Part shown: positions 33,457 to 63,278 of the stretch, in pieces | Layout of the letters: every line of letters begins with the position of its first letter | Position numbering within the stretch: position 1 is the first letter of the stretch | From: an uncultured Bacteroidales bacterium | GTDB taxonomy: Bacteria > Bacteroidota > Bacteroidia > Bacteroidales > Paludibacteraceae | Length of the DNA: 64,000 nucleotides | NCBI GenBank assembly: GCA_902800215.1 | Contig: CADCDS010000007.1 | Location: 4,010-68,009, forward strand | Direction of reading: 5' to 3' | Made by a program: the position numbers and the translations under genes | The notes under the pieces: generated by a model | Database searches by the model: none | Told to the model about the DNA's origin: nothing | Seen by the model: only the letters and a program-made list of their open reading frames with translations

Positions 33457-35592
33457 ATGAGAAAAACGATTTTAACTATGGCATTAGCCACTACCGTTTT
33501 GGCAGCGACTGCTGCTACGAATCCGTTACTGGACTACAAGAATTGGAAGACGCCGCACGGCACTTATCCGTTCAATGAGATCCATGCGGAGCATTATATG
33601 CCGGCTTTTGAAGAAGCATTCAAACAGGGTCTGAAGGAGATCGACGACATCGTCAATAATCCGGAAGCACCGACGTTCAAGAACACCATCGAGGCATACG
33701 AGGCTTCGGGGGAGTTGTTGACGGTTGTTGCCGGTTGTTTCTATAACCTGACCAGCGCAGAGACCAATGATACCCTGCAGCAGATCGAGATGGAGTTGAG
33801 TCCGAAGTTATCGGAGTATTCTTCTACCATCCGTCTCAATGAGGGTTTGTTCCAACGTATCAAAACCGTCTATGACCAGCGTGCGAAACTGAAACTGGAC
33901 AAGGCGCAGATGAAGTTACTCGAAGATATCTACGAGTCCTTTGCCAATAACGGTGCAAACCTTAGTGCCGAGGACAAACAGACCTATCGGGAGTTAACCG
34001 CCAAGCTGAGTCAACTGACGCTGCAATATGGTCAGAACGTGCTCAAGGCAACGAATGCCTGGACCATGCTCATCACCGATGAGGCGCTGTTAGCCGGTCT
34101 GAATGACGATACCAAGAGTATGCTGCGTGCCAATGCGGAGAAACAGGGTAAGGAAGGCTGGCTGCTGAACCTCAAGCCGACGACCACTATTCCGGTGATG
34201 CAGGATCTGGATAACCGCGACATCCGTCGGGAGTTATACATGGCCAGCGCTACCAAATGTGTGGGCGGTGAGTTCGATAACACTGCTATCATCGTCGAGA
34301 TCGTGAACACCCGTCTGGCGTTGGCGAACCTATTTGACAAGAAGACCTATGCCGAGAAATCGCTGTACAAGACCATGGCCGAGACGCCGGAGAACGTGTA
34401 TAAGTTGTTGGATCAACTGCGTGACGCGTATATGCCGGCTGCACAGGCAGAGGTGAAAGAACTGGAGGACTATGCACATGCGCATGGTTTCTATGCTGCG
34501 CAACTGCAGCCGTGGGACTTCAGCTATTACTCCAAGAAACTGAAGCAAGAGAAATATGCCATCTCGGATGATGACCTTCGTCCGTATTTCGAACTGGAGA
34601 ACGTGAAGAAGGGTGTGTTTGGTCTGGCGGAGAAACTGTACGGAATCAAGTTCAAAGAGAACAAGAATATCCAGGTTTATCATCCGGAAGTAACGGCATA
34701 CGAGGTGTTTGATGAGAAGGGTAAGTTCTTAGCGGTTTATTATGCGGATTTCCATCCGAGAGACGGTAAACGCGGCGGCGCATGGATGAATGATTTCCAG
34801 CCGCAGTATATTAAGAACGGTAAGGATCATCGGCCGCATATCGTGAACGTGATGAACTTCACGAGACCGACGGCAGAGAAACCGGCCTTGTTCACCTATG
34901 ACGAGGTGCGTACCTTCCTGCATGAGTTCGGTCACGGTCTGCATGGTATGCTGACCCGTTGCCAGTACGCAGCGCAGAGCGGCACCAATGTACCGCGTGA
35001 CTTTGTGGAGTTACCGAGCCAGTTCAATGAGAACTTCATCGACGAGAAAGAGTTCCTCGATACCTTCGCTAAGCATTACCTGACCGGTGATAAACTGCCG
35101 CAGGAGTTATTGGATAAGATGCATGCTTCGCAGACCTACCATGCGGCTTATGCTTGTGTTCGTCAGTTGAGCTTCGGCTACCTTGACATGGCTTGGCACA
35201 GTCTGGAACAGCCGTTTGAGGTGAATGAGACCATCGGTACCCTGGAGTCCGTGATCCGTTTCAGCGACAAAGCGATGGAGCAGGTACAGGTGATGCCTAC
35301 CGTTCCCGGTACGCAGATGTGTACGTCCTTCACTCATATCTTCTCCGGAGGATACGCAGCCGGTTATTACAGCTATAAGTGGTCGGAACTCTTGGATGCC
35401 GATGCTTTCTCTGTCTTCAAGGCGGCGCAGAAGAAGAACGGTTCTATCTTCGATAAGAAAACCGCTAAACGTTTCCGTCAGAATATCCTGGAGCGTGGCG
35501 GCACCGAGAAAGCAATGGACCTCTATAAACGCTTCCGTGGCGGAGAGCCCACTATCGATGCCCTGCTCGAACGTGACGGCATTAAGAAATAA
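33457..35592 (+). CDS. dcp: M3 family peptidyl-dipeptidase
   Basis: 711 aa with a signal peptide and zincin motif HEFGHGLH. Confidence 0.9.
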   Translation: MRKTILTMALATTVLAATAATNPLLDYKNWKTPHGTYPFNEIHAEHYMPAFEEAFKQGLKEIDDIVNNPEAPTFKNTIEAYEASGELLTVVAGCFYNLTSAETNDTLQQIEMELSPKLSEYSSTIRLNEGLFQRIKTVYDQRAKLKLDKAQMKLLEDIYESFANNGANLSAEDKQTYRELTAKLSQLTLQYGQNVLKATNAWTMLITDEALLAGLNDDTKSMLRANAEKQGKEGWLLNLKPTTTIPVMQDLDNRDIRRELYMASATKCVGGEFDNTAIIVEIVNTRLALANLFDKKTYAEKSLYKTMAETPENVYKLLDQLRDAYMPAAQAEVKELEDYAHAHGFYAAQLQPWDFSYYSKKLKQEKYAISDDDLRPYFELENVKKGVFGLAEKLYGIKFKENKNIQVYHPEVTAYEVFDEKGKFLAVYYADFHPRDGKRGGAWMNDFQPQYIKNGKDHRPHIVNVMNFTRPTAEKPALFTYDEVRTFLHEFGHGLHGMLTRCQYAAQSGTNVPRDFVELPSQFNENFIDEKEFLDTFAKHYLTGDKLPQELLDKMHASQTYHAAYACVRQLSFGYLDMAWHSLEQPFEVNETIGTLESVIRFSDKAMEQVQVMPTVPGTQMCTSFTHIFSGGYAAGYYSYKWSELLDADAFSVFKAAQKKNGSIFDKKTAKRFRQNILERGGTEKAMDLYKRFRGGEPTIDALLERDGIKK

Positions 35593-35626
35593 TGGCAATG
35601 GCTAAAGGTTAATGGCTAAAGTAAAT
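35590..35626. repeat. heptamer micro-array (AATGGCT/AAAGGTT type, 5 units)
   Basis: Starts on the dcp TAA (35590-35592). Anchors at 35591, 35597, 35604, 35611 and 35618. Confidence 0.85.
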
Positions 35627-35658
35627 CCCGCTTACTCAAGAGAGAGTAGGCGGGATTT
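35623..35658. terminator. hairpin downstream of dcp, shared with the minus-strand orphan transcript
   Basis: AAATCCCGCTTACT / loop CAAGAGAG / AGTAGGCGGGATTT. About 12-14 bp including one G-U pair, flanked by A/T. Confidence 0.55.
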
Positions 35659-60595: not shown

Positions 60596-62083
60596 AATGT
60601 GATAAAGAAGATAGATATTTACCTGCTGCGGAATTTTCTGGGGCTGTTCTTTGCTACCTTCTTTATAGCGATCTTTATCTTACTGATGCAGTTCATGTGG
60701 ATGCACGTGAACGATCTGGTGGGGAAGGGTATTGAACTGAGTGTGCTGGCGGAGTTTTTTATCTACGCCGTCGCTTCCGTGGTGCCTTTGGCGTTACCTT
60801 TGGCGATATTGCTCAGTTCGCTGATCGCCTTCGGAAACCTGGCGGAGAAAGTCGAACTGACCGCAATGAAAGCATCCGGCATCTCCCTTTTCCGTATCAT
60901 GCGTCCGTTGACCTTGGCGGTGGCATTACTGAGCATAGGCGCGTTTTTCTTCAGTAACAACGTGCTCCCCAAATCGCAGATGAAGTTATGGGCGCTTATC
61001 TTCTCCCTGCGGCAAAAAACACCGGAACTCGATATCCCTGTGGGCGAGTTCTACGACGAGATCAGCGGGTATAACATCTACGTGCGTGAGAAGCGCAACG
61101 GAGACTTGATCAACCTCATGATCTATGACTACTCCGGCGGCTTTGAGAATGCGGCGGTGATGGTGGCAGACACGGGAAGACTCAGTGCCAGTGCTGATAA
61201 ACGTTATCTGATCCTCAACCTCATCAACGGAGAGTCTTTTGAGAACCTGGATAAGAAACAGCAACGCGCTACCGGTACCACCAAGAACATCCCGTACCGG
61301 CGGGAGACCTTTACGCAGAAGCAGTTGCTTATCGATTTCTCGACGGAGTTTAACCGCTACGACGAGTCCATTCTCGAAGACCAGCATGTGAGTAAGAACA
61401 TGGAGCAGTTGCTGGAGACCATTGATTCGTTGCAGCAGGTGTCTGCCGAGAAGAGTAGGGAACAAAGCGACAAGATGATTGCCGACCGTTATTTCGGTAG
61501 GGAGACGACCAAGGACACGGTGATATTACCTACGGAACTGACGCAAGAGCAGCGAAGTGCGTATGATTTGGATACACTTTGGGCTTCGATGACCTTGCAG
61601 AACAAAAAATATATCCTATCCTTGGCGTATGATAAGGCACGAACGAATAAGGATCAGGTGGATTATAACGGCATTGTGCTCGAAGATACGGACCGTACCA
61701 TCCGCCGGCATGAGATCGAACTGCACCGTAAGTTCACGCTGGCTTTTGCCTGTCTGATCTTCTTCTTCATCGGTGCGCCGTTGGGTGCCATCATCCGCAA
61801 AGGAGGTTTGGGTGCGCCGGTGGTCATCTCCGTGATCATGTTCATCATCTATTACATCATCGATAACATGGGATTTAAGATGGCACGGGAAGCGTTATGG
61901 CCCTGTTGGGAAGGGATGTGGCTCAGTTCATTTGTCCTGCTCCCGATCGGTATCTTCCTGACCTACAAAGCCGCTACCGATTCGCCTTTGTTCTATCCCG
62001 ATGCATGGAAGATCAAATACAAACGTTGGAAAGAAAAAATACGTACATATGCAAATAAACACAATAGAAGAAGCGCTACGTGA
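60593..62083 (+). CDS. LptF/LptG family (YjgP/YjgQ) permease
   Basis: Start placed at [20 protein letters not shown]. The track start at 60569 adds MEIGNWRL, which is encoded by the heptamer array. N-terminal TM cluster, large periplasmic domain, and C-terminal TM cluster. Confidence 0.8.
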
Positions 62084-63278
62084 CTTCAAAGAAGGAAAGT
62101 TCGTCATCGTAGTGGACGATGAGGACCGCGAGAATGAAGGCGATTTCATCATTGCGGCCGAGAAGATCACACCGGAGAAAGTGAACTTCATGCTAAAGCA
62201 TGGACGCGGTGTGCTGTGCTGTCCGATTACGGAACAGCGCTGCGCTGAGTTAGACCTGATGCATCAGGTAGCGAACAATACCTCGATGTTAGGTACCCCG
62301 TTCACCGTCACGGTGGATAAACTCGAAGGCTGTACCACCGGTGTCTCGGCTGCCGATCGTGCCGCTACCATTCTGGCACTCGCAGATCCCAACTCCAAAC
62401 CGGAGACCTTTGGTCGTCCGGGACATATCAATCCGCTCTATGCCAAGGCTGGCGGTGTACTGCAACGCGCAGGACATACCGAAGCCGGTGTCGATCTGGC
62501 ACGCCTGGCAGGGCTGCAACCCGCGGCTGCACTCATCGAGATCATGAATACCGATGGAACGATGGCGCGTATGCCCCAGTTGCAAGAAGTGGCACGTGAG
62601 TTTGACCTCAAGATCATTACGATAAAAGATTTAATCGATTATCGATTAAATAAAGGCGAAAGGCTAATGGCGAAGGGCGAAAGGTCGCTGGTAGAACGCG
62701 GTGAGACGGTGTTCCTGCCTACAGCTAACGGGGAGTTTATGTTAACGCCTTTCCGGGATCTGACAACGGGTCTGGAGCATGTGGTGCTCACCAAAGGCGA
62801 GTGGAAAGAGGATGAACCCGTTCTTTGTCGGGTGCATTCCAGTTGTATGACCGGCGATATCTTCGGTTCTCAGCGCTGTGAGTGCGGTGAGCAGCTCAAC
62901 AAAGCGATGCAGATGATCCAGACCGAAGGAAAGGGTATCATCGTCTATATGAATCAGGAAGGTCGCGGTATAGGCCTTATGAATAAGATACGCGCGTATA
63001 AGCTGCAGGAGCAGGGAGACGACACCGTGGAGGCGAATGTGCATCTCGGTTTCCGGCCCGATGAACGCGATTATGGCGTCGGTGCACAGATCCTTCGGGA
63101 GATGGGAGCCCATAAACTGCGGTTGATGACCAATAATCCCGTCAAACGCGTCGGATTAGAGAGTTACGGCATCGAAATCATTGAAAATGTGCCGATTGAG
63201 ATTGCTCCGAATCGTTGGAACGAACGCTATATGCGGACAAAAAAAGAAAAAATGCACCACGATTTGAAACTCGTGTAA
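62049..63278 (+). CDS. ribBA: bifunctional 3,4-dihydroxy-2-butanone-4-phosphate synthase / GTP cyclohydrolase II
   Basis: Start placed at [10 protein letters not shown]. Has the DHBP synthase motif [12 protein letters not shown] and the GCH II zinc cysteines [20 protein letters not shown]. Overlaps the preceding gene by 35 nt. Confidence 0.93.
62652..62686. repeat. heptamer micro-array, 5 units (AAAGGCG AAAGGCT AATGGCG AAGGGCG AAAGGTC), in-frame in ribBA
   Basis: Encodes ..[15 protein letters not shown].. at the junction between the DHBP synthase and GTP cyclohydrolase II halves. Confidence 0.9.

Follow-up and report, generated by a model that had tools for sequence, protein, structure and literature searches.

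Tandem repeats of seven nucleotides (nt) are already known from several groups of bacteria. Heptamers are the most abundant class among long simple sequence repeats (SSRs, with units of 5–11 nt), and polymerase slippage with a footprint of about 7 nt has been proposed to cause them (Mrazek 2007, as summarized in PMC4679880 and PMC4692102). They occur in between open reading frames (ORFs) that are aligned, and they overlap stop codons (PMC4679880, PMC4692102). Here, we describe short, degenerate heptamer arrays in a stretch of 64,000 nt (the window) from the genome of an uncultured rumen bacterium of the Bacteroidales (Paludibacteraceae), which was assembled from metagenomes. An earlier note on the window had drawn attention to a heptamer word that recurs at four sites, two of them inside the genes pheT and ribBA. 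Our results show many more such arrays, of several unit types. We think, with a probability of roughly 60%, that they are heptanucleotide SSRs that arise by slippage or template switching, are seeded locally, are sometimes copied, and are kept only where they are tolerated.

The arrays have the features of heptanucleotide long SSRs, and repeats of this kind are known in other bacteria. As in that class, the 7-nt units stand head to tail, are over-represented compared to other periods and are mostly noncoding. A tandem unit of 5–11 nt (in 3–6 units), an excess of one period and variation between close relatives are all found here. The differences lie in the host (a rumen Paludibacteraceae), in the many coexisting unit types, in the short (3–6 units) and degenerate arrays, and in the occupation of nearly all operon spacers of 20–60 nt as well as of loops in essential enzymes. 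The extent of the phenomenon is less ordinary: the arrays make up most operon spacers and most indels between strains, and they form hypervariable, 7-residue-periodic loops in essential enzymes.

Two described systems come close. The G-rich heptamers of Xanthomonas (GGGAATC) and Nostoc/Anabaena (GGGGA(C/T)T) resemble our arrays: they are situated between ORFs that are aligned, overlap with sense-strand stop codons and differ extensively in length and sequence among close relatives; in Anabaena, a sizeable fraction is intragenic (PMC4692102). They are single G-rich units, capable of forming G-quadruplexes, with a preference for four units (PMC4692102). Our arrays, in contrast, are rich in A, G, and T, contain at most GG runs and belong to many families, and half of them have no predicted structure. 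TAACTGA repeats are found in Beggiatoaceae, cyanobacteria, and five Bacteroidetes, including Paludibacter propionicigenes (PMC4679880). They are like our arrays in forming sets of 2–6 intergenic copies that point forward, lie a short way upstream of start codons and overlap upstream stops, in occasionally lying in frame at the periphery of proteins and in having no known mechanism of spreading (PMC4679880). Our arrays differ in having many units, none of which is dominant. The window contains no tandem array of TAACTGA (one match with two mismatches, compared to 0.31 expected), and the peptide SYQLSVV is found only in orthologues of the window's RecD-like helicase. Some of these have SYQLSVVSFQL at the first array site, a peptide that reverse TAACTGA repeats would encode.

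The short tandemly repeated repetitive sequences (STRRs) of cyanobacteria, reportedly described by Mazel and colleagues in 1990, are said to be dispersed families of tandem heptamers, mostly intergenic and without known function. Our arrays belong to another phylum and consist of other units, so that neither host nor unit agrees. One of our units, CAACAGC of family D (see below), may resemble STRR3 (CAACAGT).

The family of the earlier note (family B) has the sense-strand consensus (T/G)AA(A/T)GGC. It forms degenerate arrays of period 7 at all four noted sites and at a fifth:

Site 1, 35590..35626, plus strand: TAATGGC/TAAAGGT units in the 3' untranslated region (UTR) of a Peptidase_M3 (dcp-like) gene.
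Site 2, 37048..37078, minus strand: the whole 27-nt spacer from the stop codon of a nucleoside permease (nucleoside:H+ symporter) to the ATG of an ABC-2 permease.
Site 3, 40601..40641, minus strand: in frame in pheT, NGERRKDERAN, within a loop at the surface of the catalytic-like domain.
Site 4, 62651..62686, plus strand: in frame in ribBA (start at 62049), in the linker that joins the DHBP synthase domain to the GTP cyclohydrolase II domain.
Fifth array, 19498..19525, minus strand: in frame in a RecD-like helicase gene, with the peptide ENGEWLKANGQ.

Each site has 3–5 recognisable units, and there are 1-nt indels at sites 1 and 3. In the sense direction, site 1 reads TAATGGC AATGGC TAAAGGT TAATGGC TAAAG, one unit being only 6 nt long. 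It starts with the TAA stop (35590–35592) of its gene, and its end passes directly into a terminator hairpin (35623–35658; AAATCCCGC...GCGGGATTT). Site 2 reads TAATGGC TAATGGC GAAAGGC TAAAGGC TAATG, with TAATG at both ends. Site 3 reads TAATGGC GAAAGGC GAAAGGA CGAACGG GCGAATG and encodes FNGERRKDERANED, and site 4 reads TAAAGGC GAAAGGC TAATGGC GAAGGGC GAAAGGT. A search of the whole window for three consecutive KAAWGGC units with up to three mismatches yields 11 matches at five sites, compared to 0.05 expected; none of 100 shuffles reaches 11.

The earlier note had counted its word, A(A/T)(A/G)GGC(G/T), five times at each of four sites. Period-7 arrays do occur at all four, but with 3–5 recognisable units each, and the word itself is mis-specified: it leaves out AATGGCT and fits only six units. 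The four sites do share one unit type, but the copy at 19498–19525 was overlooked. The note's translations and gene identities are correct, as is the arithmetic by which the heptamer yields K-G-E-R-R-K-A; the common GER peptides are indeed explained by the heptamer reading through all three frames. All copies were also said to have the same orientation relative to transcription, and this holds for five out of five. The common orientation stems largely from units that carry stop codons and from purine-rich coding sequences, and need not involve a directional insertion mechanism.

Within the window, family B is not special. Tandem Repeats Finder and a lag-autocorrelation scan both reveal period-7 arrays of several unit types (site 1 scores below the threshold of both). 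The scan detected 16 such arrays, where dinucleotide-preserving shuffles predict 0.1, and 0–4 arrays at any other period. There are at least five types of heptamer units: besides family B, GATTGGA/AATTGGA occurs in six arrays, and GGTTACG, AACAGCC, GATTTAA, and GATATTT are also present. Thirteen co-directional spacers in the window are 20–60 nt long, and 11–12 of them are short-period arrays (seven with heptamers, four with octamers, and one with a 23-mer).

The same excess is found in related species. Eighty ribBA-centred loci (1.385 Mb in total) contain 150 period-7 arrays, compared to two of period 5, two of period 6, and 31 of period 8. The second commonest class is period 11, with 47 arrays. 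Control DNA from E. coli (50 kb) contains no array of any period. The four-site family is a real unit type, but only a small subset of a clade-wide heptamer and octamer phenomenon with many unit types.

The positions of the arrays follow a pattern. Taking the relatives' loci and the window together, 94 of 154 classifiable arrays are intergenic. Co-directional junctions account for 73 arrays, ORFs for 60, convergent junctions for 15, and divergent ones for six; these counts are approximate because the genes in the related loci were called crudely, as longest ORFs. Most arrays at co-directional junctions (51 of 73) begin between 22 nt before and 11 nt after the upstream stop codon (−22 to +11), and 40 overlap the end of the upstream gene. 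At the other side, 36 of the 73 end no more than 13 nt from the next ATG, which means that the placement of TAACTGA repeats, forward and a few nt upstream of a start, is that of our arrays generally. The sense strand is purine rich in 55 of 71 junction arrays and in 44 of 58 coding arrays. A stop triplet is part of the junction unit in 57 of 73 cases on the sense strand, compared to 31 on the antisense strand.

In RibBA the array is a true insert, and, as the earlier note had proposed, it separates the DHBP synthase half from the GTP cyclohydrolase II half. The segment from DLIxYRL to PTxxG is 35 residues long in the window but only 26 in three array-free orthologues (L062, from a Paludibacter sp., L082, and L083; L numbers denote loci of relatives). 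In the other 62 orthologues, the linker has 34–56 residues. Aligned to the solved RibBA of M. tuberculosis (4i14), the gaps sum to 8 residues exactly at the insert, and single-domain structures match residues as far as about 200–203 on one side and from about 202–220 on the other. Linker lengths and structural alignments together confirm that there is an insert and that it lies in the linker. Its exposure was judged from the same alignments to 4i14 and to the single-domain structures; a structure prediction from an alignment of sequences with 92–98% identity was uninformative (mean predicted local distance difference test score, pLDDT, of 38.5).

The RibBA inserts of other species often consist of period-7 DNA with other units: AAAGTCG ×8 in L041, GAATTCA/GAAGTCA in L021, GGCTAAT in L081, and AGTCGAA in L063. 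The closest species (L004) has the window's array with substitutions. Judged from these sequences, the linker is a recurrent hotspot for arrays and not the site of a single event. Equally long orthologous linkers of similar sequence but with non-periodic codons had been named in the earlier note as evidence against its idea. Formally, two such linkers exist (L005 and L029 are equally long and similar, with weaker periodicity). The most plausible reading is that both descend from the window's array and have decayed, since more distant orthologues do not have the insert.

The copy in PheT is a different case. It brings a small net insertion, but it is mostly a rewrite of an existing Bacteroidales loop. 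The window's loop is only 2–4 residues longer than that of close relatives and four longer than in the Bacteroidales structures 3ig2 and 3ica, whereas most Bacteroidota have about 13 residues fewer. Among relatives with 85–100% PheT identity, there are at least eight unrelated loop sequences between FGNCYH(F/Y) and DPLxAYSEE. We compared the DNA in four pheT neighbourhoods (L084–L087), which form a separate set; a tblastn search for pheT in the ribBA-centred loci gave no matches. The loop DNA is AAGTTGA ×4 in L085, AATTAAA ×4 in L086, and an octamer array in L087; L084 has no array. Because the loops of relatives differ and carry other arrays, we regard the PheT copy as an array-driven rewrite of a variable loop. 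The earlier note's interpretation thus holds largely for RibBA and in part for PheT.

The RecD-like helicase gene (19405–20826, minus strand) carries in-frame arrays of three unit families, with the peptides GYGLSVTGYGL, KIGDWKLEIGD, and ENGEWLKANGQ. All three segments, that of the fifth family-B array included, are likewise hypervariable among orthologues. At one of them (20127..20159), orthologues differ by a clean step of 7 residues (21 nt).

Comparisons of orthologous junctions suggest that many arrays arose in place. Between the nucleoside permease and the ABC-2 permease, the two genes overlap as TGATG in L085, with no spacer at all, while L084 has a TGTAAGG array around TAG/GTG and L087 a CAAATGA array. 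In the window, the same junction reads TAATG[GC TAATGGC GAAAGGC TAAAGGC TAATG]. The orthologue of site 1 carries another array (TAAATGG) in L084 and is array-free in L085–L087; the hairpin is conserved. Of 63 cdd-lptF junctions, 24 (each from a different species) have a spacer of at most 12 nt and no array, and 11 have heptamer arrays of differing units. Empty sites at cdd-lptF and at the permease junction are overlapping TGATG or TAATTG, and the arrays elsewhere contain the local stop or start codon.

Several cdd-lptF arrays begin within the conserved last codons of cdd. Here, AAA GGT TAA appears to have seeded (AAAGGTT)5 in L070, GGC TAA to have seeded GGCTAAn in L047, and GGA TAG to have seeded GGAGATA in L020 and L025. 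For a register test, we compared the final 7 nt of the upstream gene (its stop codon included) with the 7 nt that follow and required at least five of seven matches. The upstream sequence recurs at 27 of 63 junctions with arrays, compared to 22 of 394 array-free junctions.

Turnover is visible between three strains (the window, L209, and L210), which have 94.5–96.8% nucleotide identity and could be compared over 22 kb. There are ten indels of at least 2 nt, and seven of them are arrays. One is a 30-nt in-frame insertion of family D in a type IX secretion system (T9SS)-plug gene, which distinguishes the window from L210. Where the window has a GATTTAA array (30057..30090), L210 has unrelated sequence, and its lysS-gpsA spacer has ACAATGT/ACAAAGG arrays instead of GATATTT. 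The units of site 1 are rearranged in L209 and L210. In L210 (at about window position 46939), a family-B array, AATGGCT AATGGCT AAAGGCT AATGGCT AATGGTT, lies between the glyA stop and the terminator; the corresponding window site is empty. Mismatch density in the more distant strain is 20% inside arrays, compared to 5.3% elsewhere. The genes pheT and prfC overlap by 17 nt, array-free, in L084–L087 and in L209, the PheT of which is 99% identical. The window and L210 have a 42-nt insertion with an octamer array at this place (39889–39915), which alters the C-terminal codons of PheT and the start of prfC.

At a finer scale, the arrays are stable. Two independent assemblies of the window's genome (L001 and L003) show no difference from it over 11,958 and 22,493 nt, heptamer arrays included. 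The sole exception is a hexamer array, (CAGTAA)6, which has five units in L001 (0 mismatches over the 11,958 nt). RibBA has 409 residues in 10 of 11 relatives with at least 98% identity, and PheT has 830 residues in 14 of 15, the exception having 831. Since the assemblies are identical and both protein lengths are kept at this level of identity, we conclude that the degenerate heptamer arrays are not phase-variable.

Some arrays within a genome share more than a unit. Identical strings of at least 14 nt occur in 7.9% of array pairs within a genome but in 1.1% of pairs between genomes, and shared strings that contain variant units occur in 2.3% and 0.28%, respectively (about a 7–8-fold difference). 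In L086, the PheT loop (4873–4905) and the murB-aroA junction (9790–9815), which are 5 kb apart, have 28 nt in common (GAATTAAAAATTAAAAATTACGAATTAA). The two copies are oppositely oriented relative to transcription and include a variant, TAC, that spares pheT an in-frame stop. The variant AATTACGAATT is also found in L052, from another species. Because variant strings are shared at unlinked sites, local seeding is incomplete as an explanation, and some ectopic templating or conversion within the genome is likely. Ectopic templating, gene conversion, and mobility are all compatible with the within-genome excess of these strings.

Under the explanation we favour, a stretch of 7 nt (sometimes 8 nt) would be reiterated by strand slippage or template switching during replication or repair. 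The reiteration would often be in register with the upstream stop codon and the last coding bases, or with codons at the edge of a loop. Some new tracts would take an array at another place in the genome as their template, leaving the same variant strings at unlinked sites. Selection would then retain arrays where they do no harm: in co-oriented spacers, in 3' UTRs upstream of terminators, in surface loops, and in interdomain linkers. The co-oriented spacers themselves may largely be the product of arrays that separated overlapping stop and start codons. In loops and linkers, a heptamer read in three frames would give a cyclic, mostly hydrophilic peptide of 7 residues. Finally, arrays would decay by substitution, and a divergence of a few per cent in sequence would be enough for them to be replaced. 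The molecular mechanism and the near-neutrality are interpretations, placed on the observed arrays, their excess and positions, the insertions compared to orthologues, the turnover, the stop register and the shared strings.

Several observations weigh against this explanation. The case for slippage is indirect: we infer it from the register with native sequence and from one hexamer change of ±1 unit. Our explanation does not account for the period of 7. In essential genes, the slippage of a single unit would cause a frameshift, so that coding arrays require multi-unit or compensated events, and the lengths of the RibBA linkers are not quantised in steps of 7 residues. Another seeding test, in which units were compared to a pool of empty-site junctions, did not discriminate, as 85% of control units reached at least six of seven matches. 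Upstream of the glyA start, L209 (at about window position 48222) has a family-A array where the empty window site shows no obvious resemblance to it; local seeding alone is insufficient because some new arrays are unlike their empty site, as this one is. The excess of shared variant strings could also stem from copying by a dedicated process or from selection through a trans-acting factor. The near-universal presence of arrays in operon spacers of medium length could mean that they are useful and not neutral, and the counts of array contexts, resting on crude gene calls, are approximate.

If the arrays are useful, one might think of functional RNA elements. They could serve as intercistronic spacers without structure, or an OB-fold protein (S1 or Csp-like, with a footprint of about 7 nt) could bind to them; either way, they would set translation initiation or uncouple cistrons in Bacteroidota with little use of Shine-Dalgarno sequences, and the copies in coding sequences would then be by-products. 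That arrays span the distance from a stop codon almost to the next start between co-oriented genes, that the sense strand of most junction arrays is purine rich, and that no RNA structure whatever is predicted for half of the arrays would suit such a role, which has similarly been suggested for TAACTGA repeats (PMC4679880). We nevertheless consider it unlikely. Orthologous junctions are not conserved, as the array-free cdd-lptF junctions and the unrelated units at others show, and close strains gain, lose, and swap arrays. The units share just a weak ..SAA (information content of 3.0, compared to 2.54 ± 0.04 in controls); with this as the only outcome, the motif search speaks against a single universal recognition sequence. 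Folding energy is zero in 34 of 67 junction arrays, yet this equals composition-matched shuffles (median z = 0). The same arrays also occur in coding regions and 3' UTRs, and an Rfam scan found no known RNA family that overlaps any array. Together, the tests of function argue against a conserved cis-regulatory role; the arrays may still act loosely as spacers. The arrays could instead be written into new sites by a miniature mobile element, or copied and pasted from existing arrays by a dedicated enzyme. Identical strings of 27–28 nt with the same variant units at unlinked sites, one of them inverted, would be expected from such a process. So would known unit families at new strain sites (L210 with family B past the glyA stop, L209 with family A upstream of glyA) and the in-frame multi-unit events that essential-gene arrays need, such as the 30-nt insertion and the 21-nt step. 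In being short, dispersed, mostly intergenic, and organized in genome-specific families, the arrays also resemble repetitive extragenic palindromic (REP)/REPIN sequences and DNA of the type of miniature inverted-repeat transposable elements (MITEs; PMC3116915). However, the arrays are tandem direct repeats with no palindromic structure, no terminal inverted repeats, no conserved ends and no associated transposase. Half have zero folding energy, and their boundaries are site-specific, commonly in register with native sequence. Orthologous sites in different species carry different units. Among the matches listed, (KAAWGGC)n occurs in metagenomes of many habitats on contigs with 35–71% G+C, hence the unit type is not peculiar to this lineage, and no candidate enzyme was identified within the window. 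We hold a mobile element or a dedicated copying enzyme to be improbable. A related possibility, active family-specific copy-and-paste that writes ready-made tracts in single multi-unit events, by microhomology-primed ectopic templating or by a dedicated enzyme, seems to us just as doubtful. If true, it would mean that a copy-and-paste process builds operon spacers and continually diversifies the surface loops of housekeeping proteins.

Two further readings can be dealt with more briefly. Contingency loci, phase-variable SSRs that toggle genes through their copy number, are like our arrays in being short tandem repeats prone to slippage (as in Haemophilus influenzae, PMC2651432), and the change of one unit in (CAGTAA)6 between otherwise identical assemblies is what they would show. 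That hexamer, however, lies after a stop codon. The heptamer arrays, in contrast, are degenerate and stable among strains, with no difference between the window and its two independent assemblies, and the lengths of RibBA and PheT are kept, with the single 831-residue exception. They show no on/off logic: arrays lie in frame in pheT, ribBA, lysS, the helicase, and a methyltransferase, or outside coding sequences between cistrons. Of the two class features, neither a copy number that varies among near-identical strains nor repeat changes that shift the frame or promoter spacing of a dispensable surface gene were found. We regard this reading as very improbable. Chance, composition or faulty assembly might be suspected since single arrays are short and degenerate, and site 1 falls below both scan thresholds. 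This suspicion was refuted and has next to no probability: 11–16 observed arrays or matches stand against 0.05–0.1 expected from shuffles, independent assemblies contain the same arrays, and in-frame arrays occur in conserved genes over dozens of genomes from different assembly pipelines.

Ever since the cyanobacterial STRRs, it has been known that heptamers are in excess in some bacteria, and the cause of this is still unexplained. The clade studied here offers a natural experiment, with dozens of species and strains in which the same sites can be empty or can contain fresh or decayed arrays. Such orthologous sites could allow birth rates, step sizes, seeding rules, and within-genome copying to be measured. 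With them, the question of why heptamers expand could become directly testable. The arrays also matter for annotation, as they make up most operon spacers, most strain indels, and variable loops in PheT, RibBA, and lysyl-tRNA synthetase.

The window contains the following arrays besides family B:

60560..60592, plus strand: family A (AATTGGA/GATTGGA), filling the cdd-lptF spacer.
20127..20159, minus strand: family A, in frame in the RecD-like helicase (KIGDWKLEIGD), with a 27-nt string identical to one in 23292–23323.
22555..22585, minus strand: family A, at a methyltransferase/subtilase gene junction.
23292..23323, minus strand: family A, in frame in an RlmD/TrmA-like methyltransferase (IEDWKLEIGD).
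23567..23599, minus strand: a second family-A array in the RlmD/TrmA-like methyltransferase, in frame (EEIGNWKLENGD).
25813..25846, plus strand: a hybrid family-A/ATTTTAA array, filling a 37-nt co-directional spacer.
30057..30090, plus strand: GATTTAA array that starts on a stop codon and fills the spacer 3' of an oxaloacetate-decarboxylase-like gene.
52047..52085, minus strand: GATATTT array, filling the lysS-gpsA spacer.
49556..49592, plus strand: family D (AACAGCC), in frame in the T9SS-plug gene.
29902..29927, plus strand: family D, in frame in the oxaloacetate-decarboxylase-like gene.
53482..53508, minus strand: family C (GGTTACG), in frame close to the N-terminal end of lysyl-tRNA synthetase (EVTGDGLQVTG).
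20224–20261 and 23031–23060: arrays related to family C.
39880..39920, minus strand: octamer array (ACCGTTAA ×4), apparently seeded on the pheT stop, separating pheT from prfC.
14796–14828, 28363–28402, 32178–32212, 39880–39920, and 63308–63345: octamer arrays at four co-directional junctions and 3' of ribBA.

The octamer arrays at 28363 and 32178 have the units CGTCATGA/CGACATAA in common, which contain ATG, TGA, and TAA triplets. The perfect (CAGTAA)6 at 58500–58537 opens with the stop codon of a TPR gene (56478–58505). Downstream of it, at 58579–58666, are two adjoining 11-mer arrays (CCACCTGGTCT and CAATGGATGCT). A 23-mer direct repeat (AGACCGCTGCGCTGATAGAATAT ×2.2) fills the junction at 26489–26538. 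Motifs like GACCGCTnCGCTGTWAGA or GGTCTTACAGC occur at the cdd-lptF junctions of L017, L019, and L081, and in frame in the RibBA linkers of L019, L044, and L047. Such 23-mer-like motifs may represent another family of dispersed repeats, its period being about 16–23 nt; a fuzzy search for this family returned mostly chance matches.

The gene at 14833–17427 (minus strand) encodes a protein of 864 residues and contains a 96-nt tandem repeat (×4.6, 15385–15822). This is an ordinary protein-domain repeat, which encodes calcium-binding repeats like those of thrombospondin type 3 (DxDxDGVxDYxDxCP). The window also contains a Bacteroidales small signal recognition particle RNA (108 bits) at 21002–21109 (plus strand) and a tRNA gene at 48267–48339 (minus strand). 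Immediately upstream of the tRNA gene, L209 lacks 48 nt; the gap spans 67 alignment columns because L210 is longer there. A near-identical motif, TTTTTTTGTAATTTTGCA, lies upstream of several genes (~1170–1200, 10590–10610, 19345–19365, 42520–42545, and 48455–48480), and we take it to be consistent with the −7 promoter element of Bacteroidetes (TAnnTTTG).

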